From Escherichia coli (GTDB lineage Bacteria > Pseudomonadota > Gammaproteobacteria > Enterobacterales > Enterobacteriaceae): 64,000 nucleotides of DNA. The translations under genes were made by a program, and so were the position numbers. The stretch is from NCBI RefSeq assembly GCF_050320075.1, contig NZ_CP190018.1, one strand, 5' to 3'. Position 1 is the first letter of the stretch. Each line of letters starts with the position of its first letter. Shown one piece after another: positions 44,143-48,730 of this stretch. The notes beneath the pieces were generated by a model that saw only the letters and a program-made list of their open reading frames with translations, did not search any database and had not been told where the DNA came from.

Positions 44143-45414
44143 TTACTCAATAAGCTTCAACAGTGGCGACAAGCATAACAAAATGCCGTACAGCAGAATC
44201 AGCCAGGCTTTAAACCCGCGAAGTTTTTCCAGTTGTGCGACTTTATAGATCAGGAAAAATGGAATGAGGCACGACACAATGCCATATAACGGGCTTCCCA
44301 ACTGAAAGAACACCAGCACCGATACACGAAACGAAACCCAAATCGTCAACGTAATGACGATAAAAGCGCAGATCGCCAGAGTCAGCATGCGTGAGTTAAT
44401 TTTCTTGGTATCAATAATTCGGCTTAACAGATTGAGAATAATGCCTTTAATAGCCTCGTGGAAACCGAGATAAATGCCAAAGAATGCGGTCAGTACGGCA
44501 AAGATATTCAGCACCGTAGAGGTGATATGAATGATATGCCCAGGGATCACCTGCGCGGCCAGTGCCAGTGCCGAGATATTTTGTTCAAAGGCAGAAACGG
44601 CTTCTTCGTGGCTAATTGAGAAAGTAAACGAAAAGGCAAAAAACAGGATCACCGCGATGAGCGTGATATAACTAATTCGGTGGGTACGCAGCGCGAGCCG
44701 GGTTGCCAGTACTTTATCTGCTTCCCGTTTACGATAGGCAATATTCATTGGGTTAAGTACCTGAATAAATACTGCAGAAAAGAAGCAAAATGGAATGGTA
44801 AGCAGGACATCGCGGAAAAAGACGGAGGCTTGCGGGAAGGCGGTTATATTGGTGAAATTCCAGTGCGGGATCATCGCAAAACCGAACACGACGATAATCC
44901 CTACTTTGACCACCACCATTGGCCCGGAAATCTTAAACAGTAATCGTTCACCACCAGACGCAATTGCCACCAGTACGGCGAAAATGGCGACTTTATAAAG
45001 TAGAGATTGTGAAAGATCGGCATCGGTTAAACCGAAGGTTTTCAGGTACGAGGCGCTGTCGAAAACCACGGAGAGAGAGTAGATAAAAATCCCGTGGATA
45101 ATCATCAAAAAGTAGATAACCCCGAGGAAAATTCCCCAGTTCTTCCCCAGGTAATGACTGATAATATCGGTGTAGTCATTACAGGAATCGCTTTCAGAAA
45201 GGGTTTTTAAATAAATGTCCTGCACTACCCAGGTGGCAGGATAAGCAATGATCGCTGCGGTAATAAATACCCAAATTCCCTTCAAGCCAATTTGTACTGG
45301 CATCAGCACGGTTCCGGCACCAATCGCCATGCCTATGCATAATAAAACCCAGCCGAAGTCGTAGCGTGTAAACGGCAATTTCTGATCGTGTTTCGGTAGT
45401 GTGTTGTGCTGCAT
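44143..45414 (-). CDS. yhjV: HAAAP-family amino-acid transporter homologue, 423 aa
   Basis: ORF track 44143..45477; start placed at ATG 45414-45412 ([22 protein letters not shown]...). Confidence 0.8.
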
Positions 45415-45774
45415 AAAGTCCTGTCCAGAAAGAAGTCGGCCTCGCAAAAATGAATAAACCCAGTTTCTCTTGCGCAACAGGTGGAGAAGTCGAATACGCA
45501 GTATGTAAAAAATGAGGCAACAGATTCACTGGGGAGGTCGCGAGGAGGCGCAATTCTACAAAATTGCGCATTTCACTACCAGTCTGGAGTCAGCTCGGAT
45601 ATGAACTGCAACTATTGCAAATAAAGAAATTAAGCTGGAAGGCATCGCGCAATGAGGAAGATTGCCGGGTGCTGACGGTAAAAAGCAATCGTAAAATCAG
45701 CGGCAAGCCGGAAAGGTTCCGGTGAGGCGCAATGTTGCGGGGGCTTAATCCCTGGTGGCATTGGTTGCTGGAGA

Positions 45775-45840
45775 GAGAAAACCCCCGCACGTTGCAGGTA
45801 TGCACCTGACAACACCACGGGGGCCATTCTTGCATCCAAA
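45775..45840 (-). ncRNA. rdlD: Rdl-type antisense sRNA, copy 1 (approximate ends)
   Basis: Minus-strand promoter -35 TTGTAA (45876-45871), 17-bp spacer, -10 TATTCT (45853-45848); minus-strand hairpin over 45823-45782 followed by U-run; predicted length about 66 nt, antisense to the ldr leader. Confidence 0.45.
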
Positions 45841-45889
45841 CAATACAAGAATAGCCGCGAAACGTTGTCATTACAACTCAGGCGGCTAT

Positions 45890-45997
45890 ATGACGCTCGC
45901 AGAGCTGGGCATGGCCTTCTGGCATGATTTAGCGGCTCCGGTCATTGCTGGCATTCTTGCCAGCATGATCGTGAACTGGCTGAATAAGCGGAAGTAA
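45890..45997 (+). CDS. ldrD: Ldr type I toxin peptide, 35 aa, copy 1
   Basis: MTLAELGMAFWHDLAAPVIAGILASMIVNWLNKRK; last 36 codons of ORF-track 45755..45997. Confidence 0.8.
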   Translation: MTLAELGMAFWHDLAAPVIAGILASMIVNWLNKRK

Positions 45998-46258
45998 CGT
46001 GTCAGACGGGCGTCAGGCTGCCGTAATGGCAATTTGCGCCCGGACCAGGCCGCAGGGATAAAACTCTGCGGCCTTTTTCGTAAGAAAAATGCAACGGTTG
46101 CAAGCGGATAATATTCTGCTGAATGCACAGCACAGAGTGAAGAAGTGATGGATTTCGACGAACAAAAATGGCCGTAGAATCAGCGGCAAGCCGGAAGGGT
46201 TCCGGTGAGGCGCAATGTTGCGGGGGGCTTTATCCCTGGTGGCATTGGTTGCTGGAGA

Positions 46259-46324
46259 GAGAAAACCCCCGCACGTTGCAGGTATGCACCTGACAACACC
46301 ACGGGGGCCATTCTTGCATCTAGA
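46259..46324 (-). ncRNA. Rdl-type antisense sRNA, copy 2 (approximate ends)
   Basis: Same promoter and terminator architecture as copy 1, shifted by 484 bp. Confidence 0.45.
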
Positions 46325-46373
46325 CCATTCAAGAATAGCCGCGAAACGTTGTCATTACAACTCAGGCGGCTAT

Positions 46374-46481
46374 ATGACGCTCGCAGAGCTGGGCATGGCC
46401 TTCTGGCATGATTTAGCGGCTCCGGTCATTGCTGGCATTCTTGCCAGTCTGATCGTGAACTGGCTGAACAAGCGGAAGTAA
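46374..46481 (+). CDS. Ldr type I toxin peptide, 35 aa, copy 2
   Basis: MTLAELGMAFWHDLAAPVIAGILASLIVNWLNKRK; last 36 codons of ORF-track 46215..46481. Confidence 0.8.
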   Translation: MTLAELGMAFWHDLAAPVIAGILASLIVNWLNKRK

Positions 46482-46741
46482 CGTGTCAGACGGGCGTCAG
46501 GCTGCCGTAATGGCAATTTGCGCCCGGACCAGGCCGCAGGGATAAAACTCTGCGGCCTTTTTCGTAAGAAAAATGCAACGGTTGCAAGCGGATAATATTC
46601 TGCTGAATGCACAGCACAGAGTGAAGAAATGATGGATTTCGACGAACAAAAATGGCCGTAGAATCAGCGGCAAGCCGGAAAGGTTCCGGTGAGGCGCAAT
46701 GTTGCGGGGGCTTTATCCCTGGTGGCATTGGTTGCTGGAGA

Positions 46742-46807
46742 GAGAAAACCCCCGCACGTTGCAGGTATGCACCTGACAACACCACGGGGGCTAATCTTGA
46801 CTCTAGA
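46742..46807 (-). ncRNA. Rdl-type antisense sRNA, copy 3 (approximate ends)
   Basis: Same architecture shifted by a further 483 bp; body carries several substitutions relative to copy 2. Confidence 0.4.
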
Positions 46808-46856
46808 CCACTCAAGAATAGCCGCGAAACGTTGTCATTACAACACAGGCGGCTAT

Positions 46857-46964
46857 ATGACGCTCGCAGAACTGGGCATGGCCTTCTGGCATGATTTAGC
46901 GGCTCCGGTCATTGCTGGCATTCTTGCCAGTATGATCATGAACTGGCTGAACAAGCGGAAGTAA
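46857..46964 (+). CDS. Ldr type I toxin peptide, 35 aa, copy 3
   Basis: MTLAELGMAFWHDLAAPVIAGILASMIMNWLNKRK; last 36 codons of ORF-track 46689..46964. Confidence 0.8.
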   Translation: MTLAELGMAFWHDLAAPVIAGILASMIMNWLNKRK

Positions 46965-47014
46965 CGTGTCATGCGGGCGTCAGGCTGCCGTAATGGCAAT
47001 TTGCGCCCGGATCA

Positions 47015-47045
47015 GGCCGCAGGGGTGAAACTCTGCGGCCTTTTT
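47015..47045. terminator. hairpin terminating ldr copy 3 and lying 6 bp beyond the bcsG stop on the other strand
   Basis: GGCCGCAGGGGTGAAACTCTGCGGCC followed by TTTTT; same element follows ldr copies 1 and 2. Confidence 0.6.
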
Positions 47046-47050
47046 CGTGC

Positions 47051-48730
47051 TTACTGCGGGTAAGGCACCCAGTCGCCGCCGTTCAGGCGAACGTACGGTT
47101 TATCCTGGTATTGAATAACTACTGCATTTGAGTTCTCTGAGACCGGTGCTGTTTGTGGCAACCCACTGGTGAGTTTTTTCCAGTCAACATTGTCTTCGGT
47201 GAAAATCTTGCCATCAAGAACGCGAACCACCAGATCGGAGATAGCCAGGAAGCTGCTCGGTTGGTCGATGACAATCGGTGCCCCCTGATGTGGTGCCTTC
47301 ATGCCGAAGAATTTCACCCCAACGGGGACGTCTGTGATAGACGGGCTAGGGATATCACGTAGGCCAGATACCTGCATTCTGTCGCCCTTCAGCGCGCCGC
47401 CGTGTTCCGGCACCACGACCACCATCACTTTACGACCCGATTTCTCCAGTTCAGTAAAGAAGGCGTCCAGTTCATCAAAGAATTTCTGCGCCCGCGCTTT
47501 GTAATCCGCTGTTTTGCTGACGCCCGGATAATGGTTGCCGTCATGCAGTGGAAGCGTGTTGTAGAACGTGGCACTACGGCTGTTTTTATCTTTTTCGGTA
47601 ACGTCCAGCCAGCGGTTAAGCACGGCGGTATCGTCATAAACCGGCGAACCATCAAAGCCCAGCAAAATAACCGGCAGATTTGTTTGATCCATCAATTCGG
47701 TCTGCATGCCGCCATTTTCGCGAACTTCTTTCAAAAAACCGCCGAACTGGCCGTTATGTCCCATCATCAGGTGCTGGGTAAAGCCCAGTTTCGACAGGTT
47801 ATCAAACAGATAGCAGTCGTTATTTGCCGGTTGATACAGATTAGTGTGCGAAGTCTGCCCGCAGCTGGCGCGCAGTAAACGGATCGCCGCCGGGCCACTG
47901 TAGGAGGTGGCGGAGTTAAAGTTCTTGAACTCAATATCGAAATGCGACCACAGCGGATGCGACATCAACCCGGCGGCTTCAATATCCGACCAGGAAAGCG
48001 AACAGATATTAATCACCAGTAGTTCAAATGGTTGAGCATCAGCGGGCAGCGAAGACGGGAAGGTCGATTTACGTTTCGCCTCCGCGTTATAGAAATTATT
48101 CAGCCAGGCGTTAAGGTTCGCCGTTGTTGGCGGTGCAGTTTGTGCGGGCATATCACCCACTACCGGTGCGCCACCCGTCGCCGCAACGGTTGCCGCTGCG
48201 TTGCCACCCGTCGTTGTTACAGTGGTCGTCGGTTGACCGGCTGGCCACAAGGAGAAACTTGGTCCCGCCAGGGTAAGTACGTTCAGCCATAGCAGAATGG
48301 CAACCACAAAAACGGTAATGCGAATCCATTGTGACAGGAATAACCAGGCCACTAATAAAACAAAAATGGCCCCAATCATCTGCCAGTTAATAAAGCGTGT
48401 GACAAGGTCGATTAAATAATCGGTACTGAACCCCGCCACCTGCGAACCCTGGCTCATTATGCTTTCCGGGCCAGGCAACCAGGTGTCATGCCAGAACAAA
48501 GCAAAGCCGATCGGCAGGGCAATCCAGTGGCGTAAGCGATGCAGGCTGTAGCGCGGAATGGGCATCAGCAGAAACGCGGCAAACACCAGATTGAGGAGCG
48601 GATGGAAGTTAAGATATCCCGCCCACAACAGGCCGAACTTAACCAGAAAATAGAAGTTCCAGCCGGAAAGGCCGCGCCAGTATTGCCAGAGGGAAGAAGG
48701 CATGGCGGTATTTTGCGTAAATTGAGTCAT
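47051..48730 (-). CDS. bcsG: cellulose phosphoethanolamine transferase, 559 aa
   Basis: ORF track 47051..48730. Confidence 0.9.

Follow-up and report, generated by a model that had tools for sequence, protein, structure and literature searches.

Variable bases at a predicted tail/loop contact between Rdl antisense RNAs and ldr toxin mRNAs in Escherichia coli

Described systems and the LDR-D locus

Enterobacterial chromosomes keep several near-identical modules of a small toxin and its antisense RNA, which raises the questions of why they do so and of how the antisense RNA Rdl finds the ldr toxin mRNA. The locus considered here is a three-unit ldrD/rdlD array (LDR-D) at 45.4–47.05 kb, between yhjV and bcsG, of a 64,000-nucleotide stretch of the Escherichia coli contig NZ_CP190018.1; this whole stretch is termed the window. 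In E. coli K-12, LdrD is toxic on overexpression and is repressed by RdlD, and reviews regard the mechanism of Rdl as unresolved and the model of a leader open reading frame (ORF), ldrX, as unconfirmed (PMC4147584). An RdlD/ldrD double-stranded RNA processed by RNase III has been captured in vivo (PMC7373196), and in strain BL21(DE3) a transcriptome-based annotation places three ldrD/rdlD pairs between bcsG and yhjV (PMC5435950).

The closest described case of variable pairing elements is Sib/Ibs, where mutagenesis has shown that the choice of the cognate ibs is determined by variable target recognition domains (TRDs) of Sib, two of them internal (Han et al. 2010, PMC2943612). Variable recognition domains likewise set cognate choice in OrzO/zorO, according to a review (PMC8167048). 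As with Sib/Ibs, the LDR-D units are near-identical cis-antisense toxin paralogues with a few variable bases in elements that, by analogy, would nucleate pairing, and the proposed outcome is again a cognate-preferential repression, here predicted from pairing energies. Sib, however, spans the whole ibs mRNA, whereas Rdl would make one contact between its 5′ tail and a loop, possibly together with an invariant loop–loop site, for which 45797–45810 is the candidate.

A second comparison is with hok/sok, in which an 11-nucleotide (nt) 5′ tail of Sok recognises a loop of the hok mRNA (Franch et al. 1999, summarised in PMC1635323). Rdl resembles Sok as an antisense RNA of about 65 nt with a predicted free 5′ tail and a stem-loop/terminator, and the predicted target is likewise the apical loop of a hairpin within a toxin leader that is long and highly folded. 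Both duplexes are processed by RNase III (PMC7373196), and for ldr, too, a leader ORF has been proposed (ldrX, likened to mok). The peptides, however, are not homologous, that of ldr belonging to PF13940 and not to Hok/Gef, ldrX is not placed unambiguously in the window units, and the ldr mRNA is not known to refold after 3′ processing. The ldr leader is not assigned to the hok/sok family, as the Rfam family RF01794 scores 24–29 bits on it, as compared with a gathering score of 59. These sub-threshold matches to RF01794 ‘sok (CssrC)’ lie at 45739–45892, 46223–46376 and 46706–46859 on the plus strand (E values of 8e-4 to 0.02); the hairpin of the model aligns stem-for-stem with the ldr leader hairpin described below, its loop CUaaACAAc falls on the variable loop, and the model ends at the ldr AUG. 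This hints at a leader architecture common with hok-type loci, which the literature calls analogous, not homologous.

In ColE1 RNA I/RNA II and in R1 CopA/CopT, loop sequences define plasmid incompatibility groups. A few loop bases set the binding rate in these plasmid antisense RNAs and discrete, non-interfering classes coexist, as is proposed for the LDR alleles. The plasmid RNAs control replication of competing replicons, whereas the LDR classes lie side by side in one chromosomal array.

The window array is of the LDR-D type and is not the ldrABC array. It corresponds to K-12 LDR-D in position, in neighbouring genes and in encoding 35-amino-acid (aa) peptides of the Ldr family, and its Rdl sequences match RF01813 at 82–87 bits; K-12 has a single unit there, the window three. 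The counterpart of the K-12 unit is copy 3. The Rdl start GUCUAGAGUC... is common to both, Rdl copy 3 equals K-12 RdlD over all 64 nt annotated in K-12 (GTCTAGAGTCAAGATTAGCCCCC...), and the two units are identical throughout the most divergent segment of the array, here called the patch, with 5 differing sites outside it. Copies 1 and 2 have loop/tail alleles absent from K-12.

The Ldr/Rdl system itself, three-copy D arrays and the variable recognition domains of Sib/Ibs are already known. Two points appear to be new: the variable patch maps onto a predicted tail/loop contact, and its alleles are discrete, of intermediate frequency and trans-species; a literature search found no description of Ldr/Rdl loop/tail variability as an organised allele series. 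We propose, at roughly even odds (a probability of about 0.5), that the patch is the recognition interface between the Rdl tail and the ldr loop, and that distinct allele classes are maintained which give preferential pairing of each Rdl with its cognate ldr mRNA.

The divergence patch and its alleles

The cores of the three units (45695–46081, 46178–46565 and 46662–47048) align over 388 columns. Of these, 23 vary between copies, and nine of the 23 are inside 21 bp of copy 1, 45825–45845 (columns 45825, 45827, 45833, 45834, 45837, 45839, 45842, 45844 and 45845). By permutation of the scan statistic, p is ~4e-5 for windows of 21 bp and <1e-3 for those of 15 and 30 bp. Clustered divergence near the overlap of the ldr leader with Rdl had been pointed out in the first-pass annotation of this DNA, which quoted the segments of copies 1 to 3 as ...GCATCCAAACAATACAAGAATAGCC (45831–45856), ...GCATCTAGACCATTCAAGAATAGCC and ...GACTCTAGACCACTCAAGAATAGCC. 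The three strings are present as written and the clustering is borne out; changes are not spread evenly, with identity across units in 20-bp windows at 70–90% in the patch only and at 90–100% everywhere else. The coding parts, described there as nearly identical, are roughly so, yet 5 of their 105 columns vary, and one residue is replaced in each of two copies (M26L in copy 2, V28M in copy 3). The divergent segment had also been equated with the 5′ part of Rdl. This holds for six of the nine sites, which are nt 3, 5, 8, 9, 15 and 17 of Rdl, and fails for the other three, just upstream of its start. The patch therefore does not lie outside Rdl but straddles its 5′ end, with two thirds of the sites inside the predicted single-stranded tail.

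Population diversity was assessed in K-12 and 20 further E. coli strains taken along a similarity ranking, which gave 53 D-type units from 21 strains. In these, LDR-D has 1 to 5 copies per strain and an almost invariant peptide, and the patch occurs as about ten discrete alleles. Mean nucleotide diversity (pi) of the 53 units reaches 0.214 in the patch, as compared with 0.024 in the flanks, 0.035 in the 3′ untranslated region (UTR), 0.036 at third codon positions and 0.042 in the spacer between units; patch diversity is thus about nine times that of the flanks, six times that of third codon positions and five times that of the spacer. The patch is the maximum-pi window of the unit, and none of 20,000 permutations reaches the observed value (p <5e-5). 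All 11 variable patch columns have variants at intermediate frequency (the minor variant in at least 8 of the 53 units), as compared with 12 of 57 flank columns (Fisher, 9e-7). Singletons, on the other hand, are of similar density in the two regions (2 over the 21 columns of the patch, 19 over the 367 of the flanks).

As the density of singletons is not raised, there is no sign of hypermutability, and the excess of diversity is entirely old variation. This bears on the possibility of a mutational hot spot, in which a single-stranded hairpin or cruciform loop, or the transcription start region, would be more mutable, be it chemically or during replication. The patch does lie at the loop of an inverted repeat and at a transcription start site; yet, apart from the singletons, other species have identical alleles, transversions are numerous among the changes, and copy 3 agrees with K-12 LDR-D in the patch although the two differ at 5 sites elsewhere. 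A hot spot is thus a very improbable explanation.

Between strains, the flanks of units with the same allele differ by 1.8% and those of units with different alleles by 2.55%. Because same-allele flanks differ almost as much, the flanks recombine around intact alleles. The pattern is not confined to LDR-D: at the LDR-ABC locus between chaA and kdsA (25 units from 11 strains) the peak of diversity is in the same loop and includes a 14-nt variant.

Some details of the alleles may be added. Loop position 10 of D-type units (rdl −1, 45842) is C only with G at loop position 7 (Rdl nt 3, 45839), and the loop alleles are apparent mosaics of three short blocks, which points to recombination inside 13 nt or to convergent change. 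At the chaA side, an ABC-type unit of E. coli O157:H7 Z570 is missing about 6 nt of the Rdl stem (ACAACAGGGCTAATC vs ACAACAGAACGGGGGCTAATC), and this Rdl may be defective.

Species-wide counts were made with exact 41-nt queries for the three window alleles in 5,426 complete E. coli genomes. The alleles are carried by 1718, 1359 and 2083 genomes (25–38%), with 20, 24 and 43 places beyond one per genome, and each is single in at least 98% of its carriers. A repeated allele is found in one of 13 distinct multi-copy architectures, that of MS21-1, as compared with 5.1 expected under shuffling, a result that is descriptive in that the shuffle null ignores shared ancestry. The rule that no allele is ever repeated in an array was considered and rejected; it is contradicted by units 3 and 4 of MS21-1, by the ABC locus of K-12 and of QEC11 and by the 1–2% of extra copies, and the defensible wording is that alleles are rarely repeated within arrays.

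The array of E. coli MS 21-1 (NZ_CP146670.1) has five LDR-D units, units 3 and 4 having a common loop allele; the −10 box of unit 3 is TATTAT, yhjV contains an IS1 and bcsG is a pseudogene. Plasmids account for 29 of the approximately 27,000 LDR matches in complete E. coli genomes. The 7.6-Mb record CP050202.1 has, at 2461–2721, a truncated ldr unit with the loop allele CATCTAGACCATT beside genes of plasmid type (TraC, StbA/ParM and Plasmid_stab_B).

Units of other Escherichia were located by a protein search with the in-frame extended ORF, followed by retrieval of the encoding contigs. E. fergusonii, Escherichia sp. E2562 and Escherichia sp. HH154 have four D-type units each, with four different loops. 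Nine of the 12 loops are identical to E. coli alleles and have flanks that differ by 1–9%, and the summed cross-species loop distance is 3, where the flank rate would predict at least 4.9. The loop is thus conserved, within a class, at least as well as the constrained rest of the unit; between classes about 25% of positions differ. In E2562, 11 lineage-specific substitutions are common to at least three of the four paralogues and start 5 nt 3′ of the loop, and the loops stay distinct. This argues for concerted evolution, i.e. gene conversion, that spares the loop. The E. fergusonii paralogues have no such common lineage-specific sites, and the point on concerted evolution comes from the one lineage. 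The four-unit array of E. fergusonii ATCC 35469 (CU928158.2) adjoins bcsG and has on its other side a pyridoxal phosphate (PLP)-dependent Cys/Met-metabolism gene, not yhjV.

Neutral drift and cognate specificity had been given equal standing in the first-pass annotation. Drift could take the form of relaxed constraint on old paralogues, the loop alone being free to vary and accumulating neutral changes while purifying selection and gene conversion hold the rest. The rest of the unit is indeed packed with the peptide, the Rdl stem-loop, promoters and predicted long-range mRNA pairing, and the orders of units in arrays roughly fit an origin by deletion from a longer ancestral array. We consider this explanation unlikely. 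It does not fit the within-class conservation of the loop and the nine of 12 cross-species identities, or a diversity 5–6 times that of third codon positions and spacer, and no patch column varies through rare variants alone. In addition, neutral conversion should homogenise the loop, yet the E2562 loops are distinct beside converted sites.

Drift and hypermutation are therefore poor explanations, in view of the diversity excess, the intermediate frequencies, the flat singleton density, the trans-species alleles and their occurrence in one copy per genome. The allele classes fit a recognition code better than random drift. Since the classes are discrete, conserved, trans-species and nearly single per genome, it is suggested that selection maintains about ten distinct loop/tail classes across Escherichia. 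Of the two alternatives left side by side, drift is thus poorly supported by the population data; specificity agrees with the tail/loop map, with a discrimination that is predicted to be partial.

Predicted pairing and proposed cognate preference

The patch consists of the 13-nt apical loop and two 5′-stem positions of a predicted ldr-leader hairpin, with an 11-bp stem that has one mismatch and is formed by the inverted repeat GGC(C/T)A(T/A)TCTTG ... CAAGAATAGCC. The hairpin is part of the ViennaRNA minimum free energy (MFE) fold of the full-length ldr mRNA in all three copies, with pair probabilities of 0.67–0.95 (0.80–0.95 in copy 1, where the isolated fold has −9.3 kcal/mol). On the opposite DNA strand its 3′ strand CAAGAATAGCC is the putative −10 region of rdl, and this double role would account for its invariance. 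Rdl starts inside the loop, with nt 1–9 complementary to loop nt 9–1 and nt 10–17 complementary to the 5′ strand of the stem. Its 5′ tail is predicted to be unpaired over nt 1–16 by the Rfam consensus and over nt 1–11 in the MFE fold of each copy. The variable positions of D units coincide with Rdl nt 3–17 and with the target loop, and the same is found at the ABC locus. The geometry resembles the recognition of the hok loop by the Sok tail, and by analogy pairing may nucleate at the variable positions.

The stem was compared in 19 hairpin haplotypes from 90 units of D and ABC types, taken from E. coli and the three other Escherichia genomes; 90.9% of cells are paired. Exactly one stem mismatch is present in every haplotype, at the sites 45825/45853 and 45827/45851. 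The stem variant CATT produces a C·A mismatch and the variant TAAT an A·A mismatch; neither a fully paired TATT nor a doubly mismatched CAAT is found among the 19.

A mechanism can be proposed as follows. The 11-bp leader stem would present the 13-nt apical loop to Rdl, and pairing would nucleate between the Rdl tail and this loop, in the manner of the Sok 5′ tail on its hok target loop. The duplex would then zip through the invariant 49 nt to a length of 66 bp, to be cut by RNase III and/or to block translation of the leader. Because the nucleating bases differ, each Rdl would bind its own ldr mRNA fastest, and cognate control would be preferential and not absolute.

Predicted energies agree with such a preference. 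For the window copies, Rdl nt 1–9 pair with the cognate loop at −12.4 to −13.0 kcal/mol and with non-cognate loops at 0 to −9.5 kcal/mol; the 17-nt tail pairs with the hairpin region at −26 to −28 kcal/mol in cognate combinations and at −6 to −25 kcal/mol in others. When nine tails from the population are paired with each other's targets, the mean non-cognate penalty is predicted to be 11.6 kcal/mol. Copies 1 and 3 are well separated in predicted pairing. Duplex prediction of each Rdl with each ldr leader, put forward in the first-pass annotation as a way to examine specificity, thus gives stronger cognate pairs, but the discrimination is incomplete and asymmetric.

A number of points weigh against the recognition reading. 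The full 66-nt Rdl is predicted to pair with a non-cognate leader still at −57 to −83 kcal/mol, as compared with −83 to −86 kcal/mol for the cognate one. Nucleotides 1–7 are common to Rdl2 and Rdl3, and Rdl1 forms two G–U wobbles and no mismatch on the ldr2 loop (−9.5 vs −12.4 kcal/mol). The weakly discriminated pairs of the window array would be Rdl1/ldr2 and, in both directions, Rdl2/ldr3. Alleles that occur together in one genome are not more orthogonal than distinct alleles drawn at random (11.55 vs 11.63 kcal/mol), and K-12 rdlB and rdlC have identical tails, as do the two corresponding QEC11 units; the first point and the identity of rdlB and rdlC also count in favour of relaxed constraint. 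An allele is repeated in about 1–2% of carrier genomes and in the MS21-1 array, and the one-copy pattern could simply go back to an ancestral array whose units already differed. The strains were sampled by similarity rank and not by phylogeny. No compensatory covariation was found in the hairpin among the 19 haplotypes, and comparison is neutral on the hairpin, as the stem hardly changes: 8 of its 11 pairs are constant, and the sole stem changes are two one-sided substitutions of U–A to U–G. Three of the nine variable sites are outside the RNA duplex (45842, 45844 and 45845, which are −1, −3 and −4 of the Rdl 5′ end). Lastly, a literature search found no experiment on Rdl cross-reactivity or cross-repression.

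Two stronger forms of the proposal were rejected. One is a thermodynamic specificity of the full duplex; given how stable the non-cognate duplexes still are, specificity of any kind must be kinetic and act at nucleation. Antisense RNAs of this kind act through kinetic nucleation, which is carried over to Rdl by analogy. The other is that co-resident alleles were chosen to be maximally orthogonal. The predicted discrimination is also asymmetric, with Rdl2 having two mismatches on ldr1, and specificity is best regarded as partial. A strict rule of one Rdl for one ldr is contradicted by the weak pairs here, by the identical tails of rdlB and rdlC and by the repeated alleles.

The three sites that precede the Rdl start may reflect tuning of the rdl promoter, or may be free positions of the loop. 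As an explanation of the whole patch, promoter and transcript tuning would have Rdl output, choice of start site or regulation, and not the choice of target, set by the discriminator (−1 to −4) together with the first part of the transcript (+3 to +9). These three sites fall in the interval from the putative −10 box to +1 and cannot act via the duplex; discriminators differ in G+C content (TGTATT, TGAATG and TGAGTG), and position −1 co-varies with +3. Most variable sites are, however, transcribed, including the most polymorphic ones, and there is no variation in the −10 box or in the first two transcribed bases (+1/+2, GU in Rdl). As for the promoter, it was assigned by eye as an 8/12 consensus match, and a promoter scan of the region gave no sigma-70 site above the scan threshold. 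Nor does tuning predict discrete trans-species classes in one copy per genome. It is quite improbable as the sole explanation; it can coexist with recognition at the tail/loop contact, both acting at once.

Alternatively, the patch might alter a peptide, that of the leader ORF ldrX or a 65-aa extended Ldr, and not an RNA contact. The literature does contain the proposal of an ldrX (PMC4147584, PMC8167048), and extended ‘Ldr’ proteins of 65–91 aa are often output by gene callers. The ldr frame is open through the patch in all three window copies, with in-frame ATGs at 45800, 46284 and 46767 (90 nt upstream); the +2 frame is also open in the three, and the TTAAC loop allele of other strains adds a TAA. 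The in-frame ATG, however, is absent from ABC-type units, whose loops vary likewise, and it has no usable Shine–Dalgarno (SD) spacing, whereas an ORF with a good SD (45732–45809) stops before the patch. A search for ldrX gave three candidate ORFs, none of which combines a plausible SD with an initiation region under Rdl, and its placement is ambiguous. The three of nine changes outside Rdl and the length variation of ABC loops would be odd for a conserved peptide. An effect through upstream coding is thus hardly to be expected.

Returning to recognition at the tail/loop contact, one may tentatively go further, with more doubt than confidence, and regard tail and loop as about ten trans-species specificity (‘immunity’) classes that are selected against homogenisation, each unit policing itself. 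An identical duplicate would then be covered by the Rdl of its twin and could be freely lost, but a unit of unique class could not be deleted without a stable toxin mRNA being left unopposed. Chromosomal type I toxin arrays would thus behave like sets of plasmid incompatibility groups, which would explain why arrays are made up of different classes, usually one of each, and why multiple copies persist.

The locus provides a small experimental handle, in the form of a 13-nt loop and a 9-nt tail segment of which nature provides a few versions. If who represses whom depends on the version, Ldr/Rdl would be a second natural RNA ‘address code’ among paralogous toxin modules, after Sib/Ibs, and one with a population signature of maintained diversity, its alleles being trans-species and present at 25–38%; synthetic biology would also gain natural antisense/target pairs that are orthogonal to one another. 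Should the alleles turn out to be functionally equivalent, the sharp trans-species classes need another explanation.

Layout of the array and ldr mRNA

The features of the array are given in Table 1. The intergenic region that contains it recurs with 100% identity in many complete E. coli genomes, whose annotation lists three ‘Ldr family’ toxins there. Units repeat with a period of 483–484 bp, a long direct repeat of about 0.5 kb at the K-12 LDR-D site. The three 35-aa ORFs, with ATGs at 45890, 46374 and 46857, have the sequence MTLAELGMAFWHDLAAPVIAGILAS(M/L)I(V/M)NWLNKRK, and database homologues of the peptides carry PF13940 (Ldr_toxin). Each Rdl match (RF01813 gathering score, 50 bits) ends 49 nt upstream of its own ldr ATG and does not overlap the start codon; the Rdl 5′ end given by the match is the annotated K-12 rdlD start.

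Table 1. Coordinates of features of the LDR-D array and its boundary genes in the window
Feature	Position	Strand	Basis and remarks
Divergence hot spot, copy 1	45825..45845	.	loop allele CATCCAAACAATA, stem variant CATT; 9/23 variable columns; maximum-pi window of 53 units
ldr-leader hairpin, copy 1	45822..45856	+	predicted; 5′ strand 45822-45832, loop 45833-45845, 3′ strand 45846-45856
ldr-leader hairpin, copy 2	46306..46340	+	predicted; loop CATCTAGACCATT 46317-46329; pair probabilities 0.67-0.80
ldr-leader hairpin, copy 3	46789..46823	+	predicted; loop ACTCTAGACCACT 46800-46812; stem variant TAAT; pair probabilities 0.87-0.93
Rdl, copy 1	45776..45841	-	5′ GUUUGGAUGCAAGAAUGG...; Rfam RF01813 rdlD, 81.7 bits, full length 1-66
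Rdl, copy 2	46260..46325	-	5′ GUCUAGAUGCAAGAAUGG...; RF01813, 81.8 bits
Rdl, copy 3	46743..46808	-	5′ GUCUAGAGUCAAGAUUAG...; RF01813, 87 bits
Putative rdl −10 box TATTCT	45848..45853	-	by eye, anchored on +1 at 45841; within hairpin 3′ strand
Putative rdl −35 TTGTAA	45871-45876	-	by eye; 17-nt spacer; 6 nt from −10 box to +1
ldr mRNA, unit 1	45703..46081	+	approximate inferred ends; 5′ from −10-like TAAAAT 45691-45696; 3′ = terminator + T-run
ldr CDS, copy 1	45890..45997	+	35 aa, MTLAELGMAFWHDLAAPVIAGILASMIVNWLNKRK; ORF list; RefSeq ‘type I toxin-antitoxin system toxin Ldr family protein’
ldr CDS, copy 2	46374..46481	+	M26L; ORF list
ldr CDS, copy 3	46857..46964	+	V28M; ORF list
ldr terminator, unit 1	46047..46074	+	terminator-like hairpin
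ldr terminator, unit 2	46531..46558	+	terminator-like hairpin
ldr terminator, unit 3	47014..47041	+	terminator-like hairpin
yhjV	44143..45414	-	left boundary gene; ORF list, annotation in 100%-identical E. coli genomes and K-12
bcsG	47051..48730	-	right boundary gene; ORF list, annotation in matching E. coli genomes and K-12

The ldr mRNA of unit 1 would be about 379 nt long, given its inferred ends. This is near the length of the ldrD mRNA, which Kawano is said to have put at about 370 nt in 2002. In the MFE fold of the ldr mRNA, the 5′ leader at 45725–45735 (GGCGCAAU...) is predicted to pair with the 3′ UTR at about 46029–46039 (...AUUUGCGCC), and a similar pairing is predicted in units 2 and 3. 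The predicted fold would also sequester the ldr start region, an arrangement that recalls the pairing of 5′ and 3′ ends in the hok mRNA.

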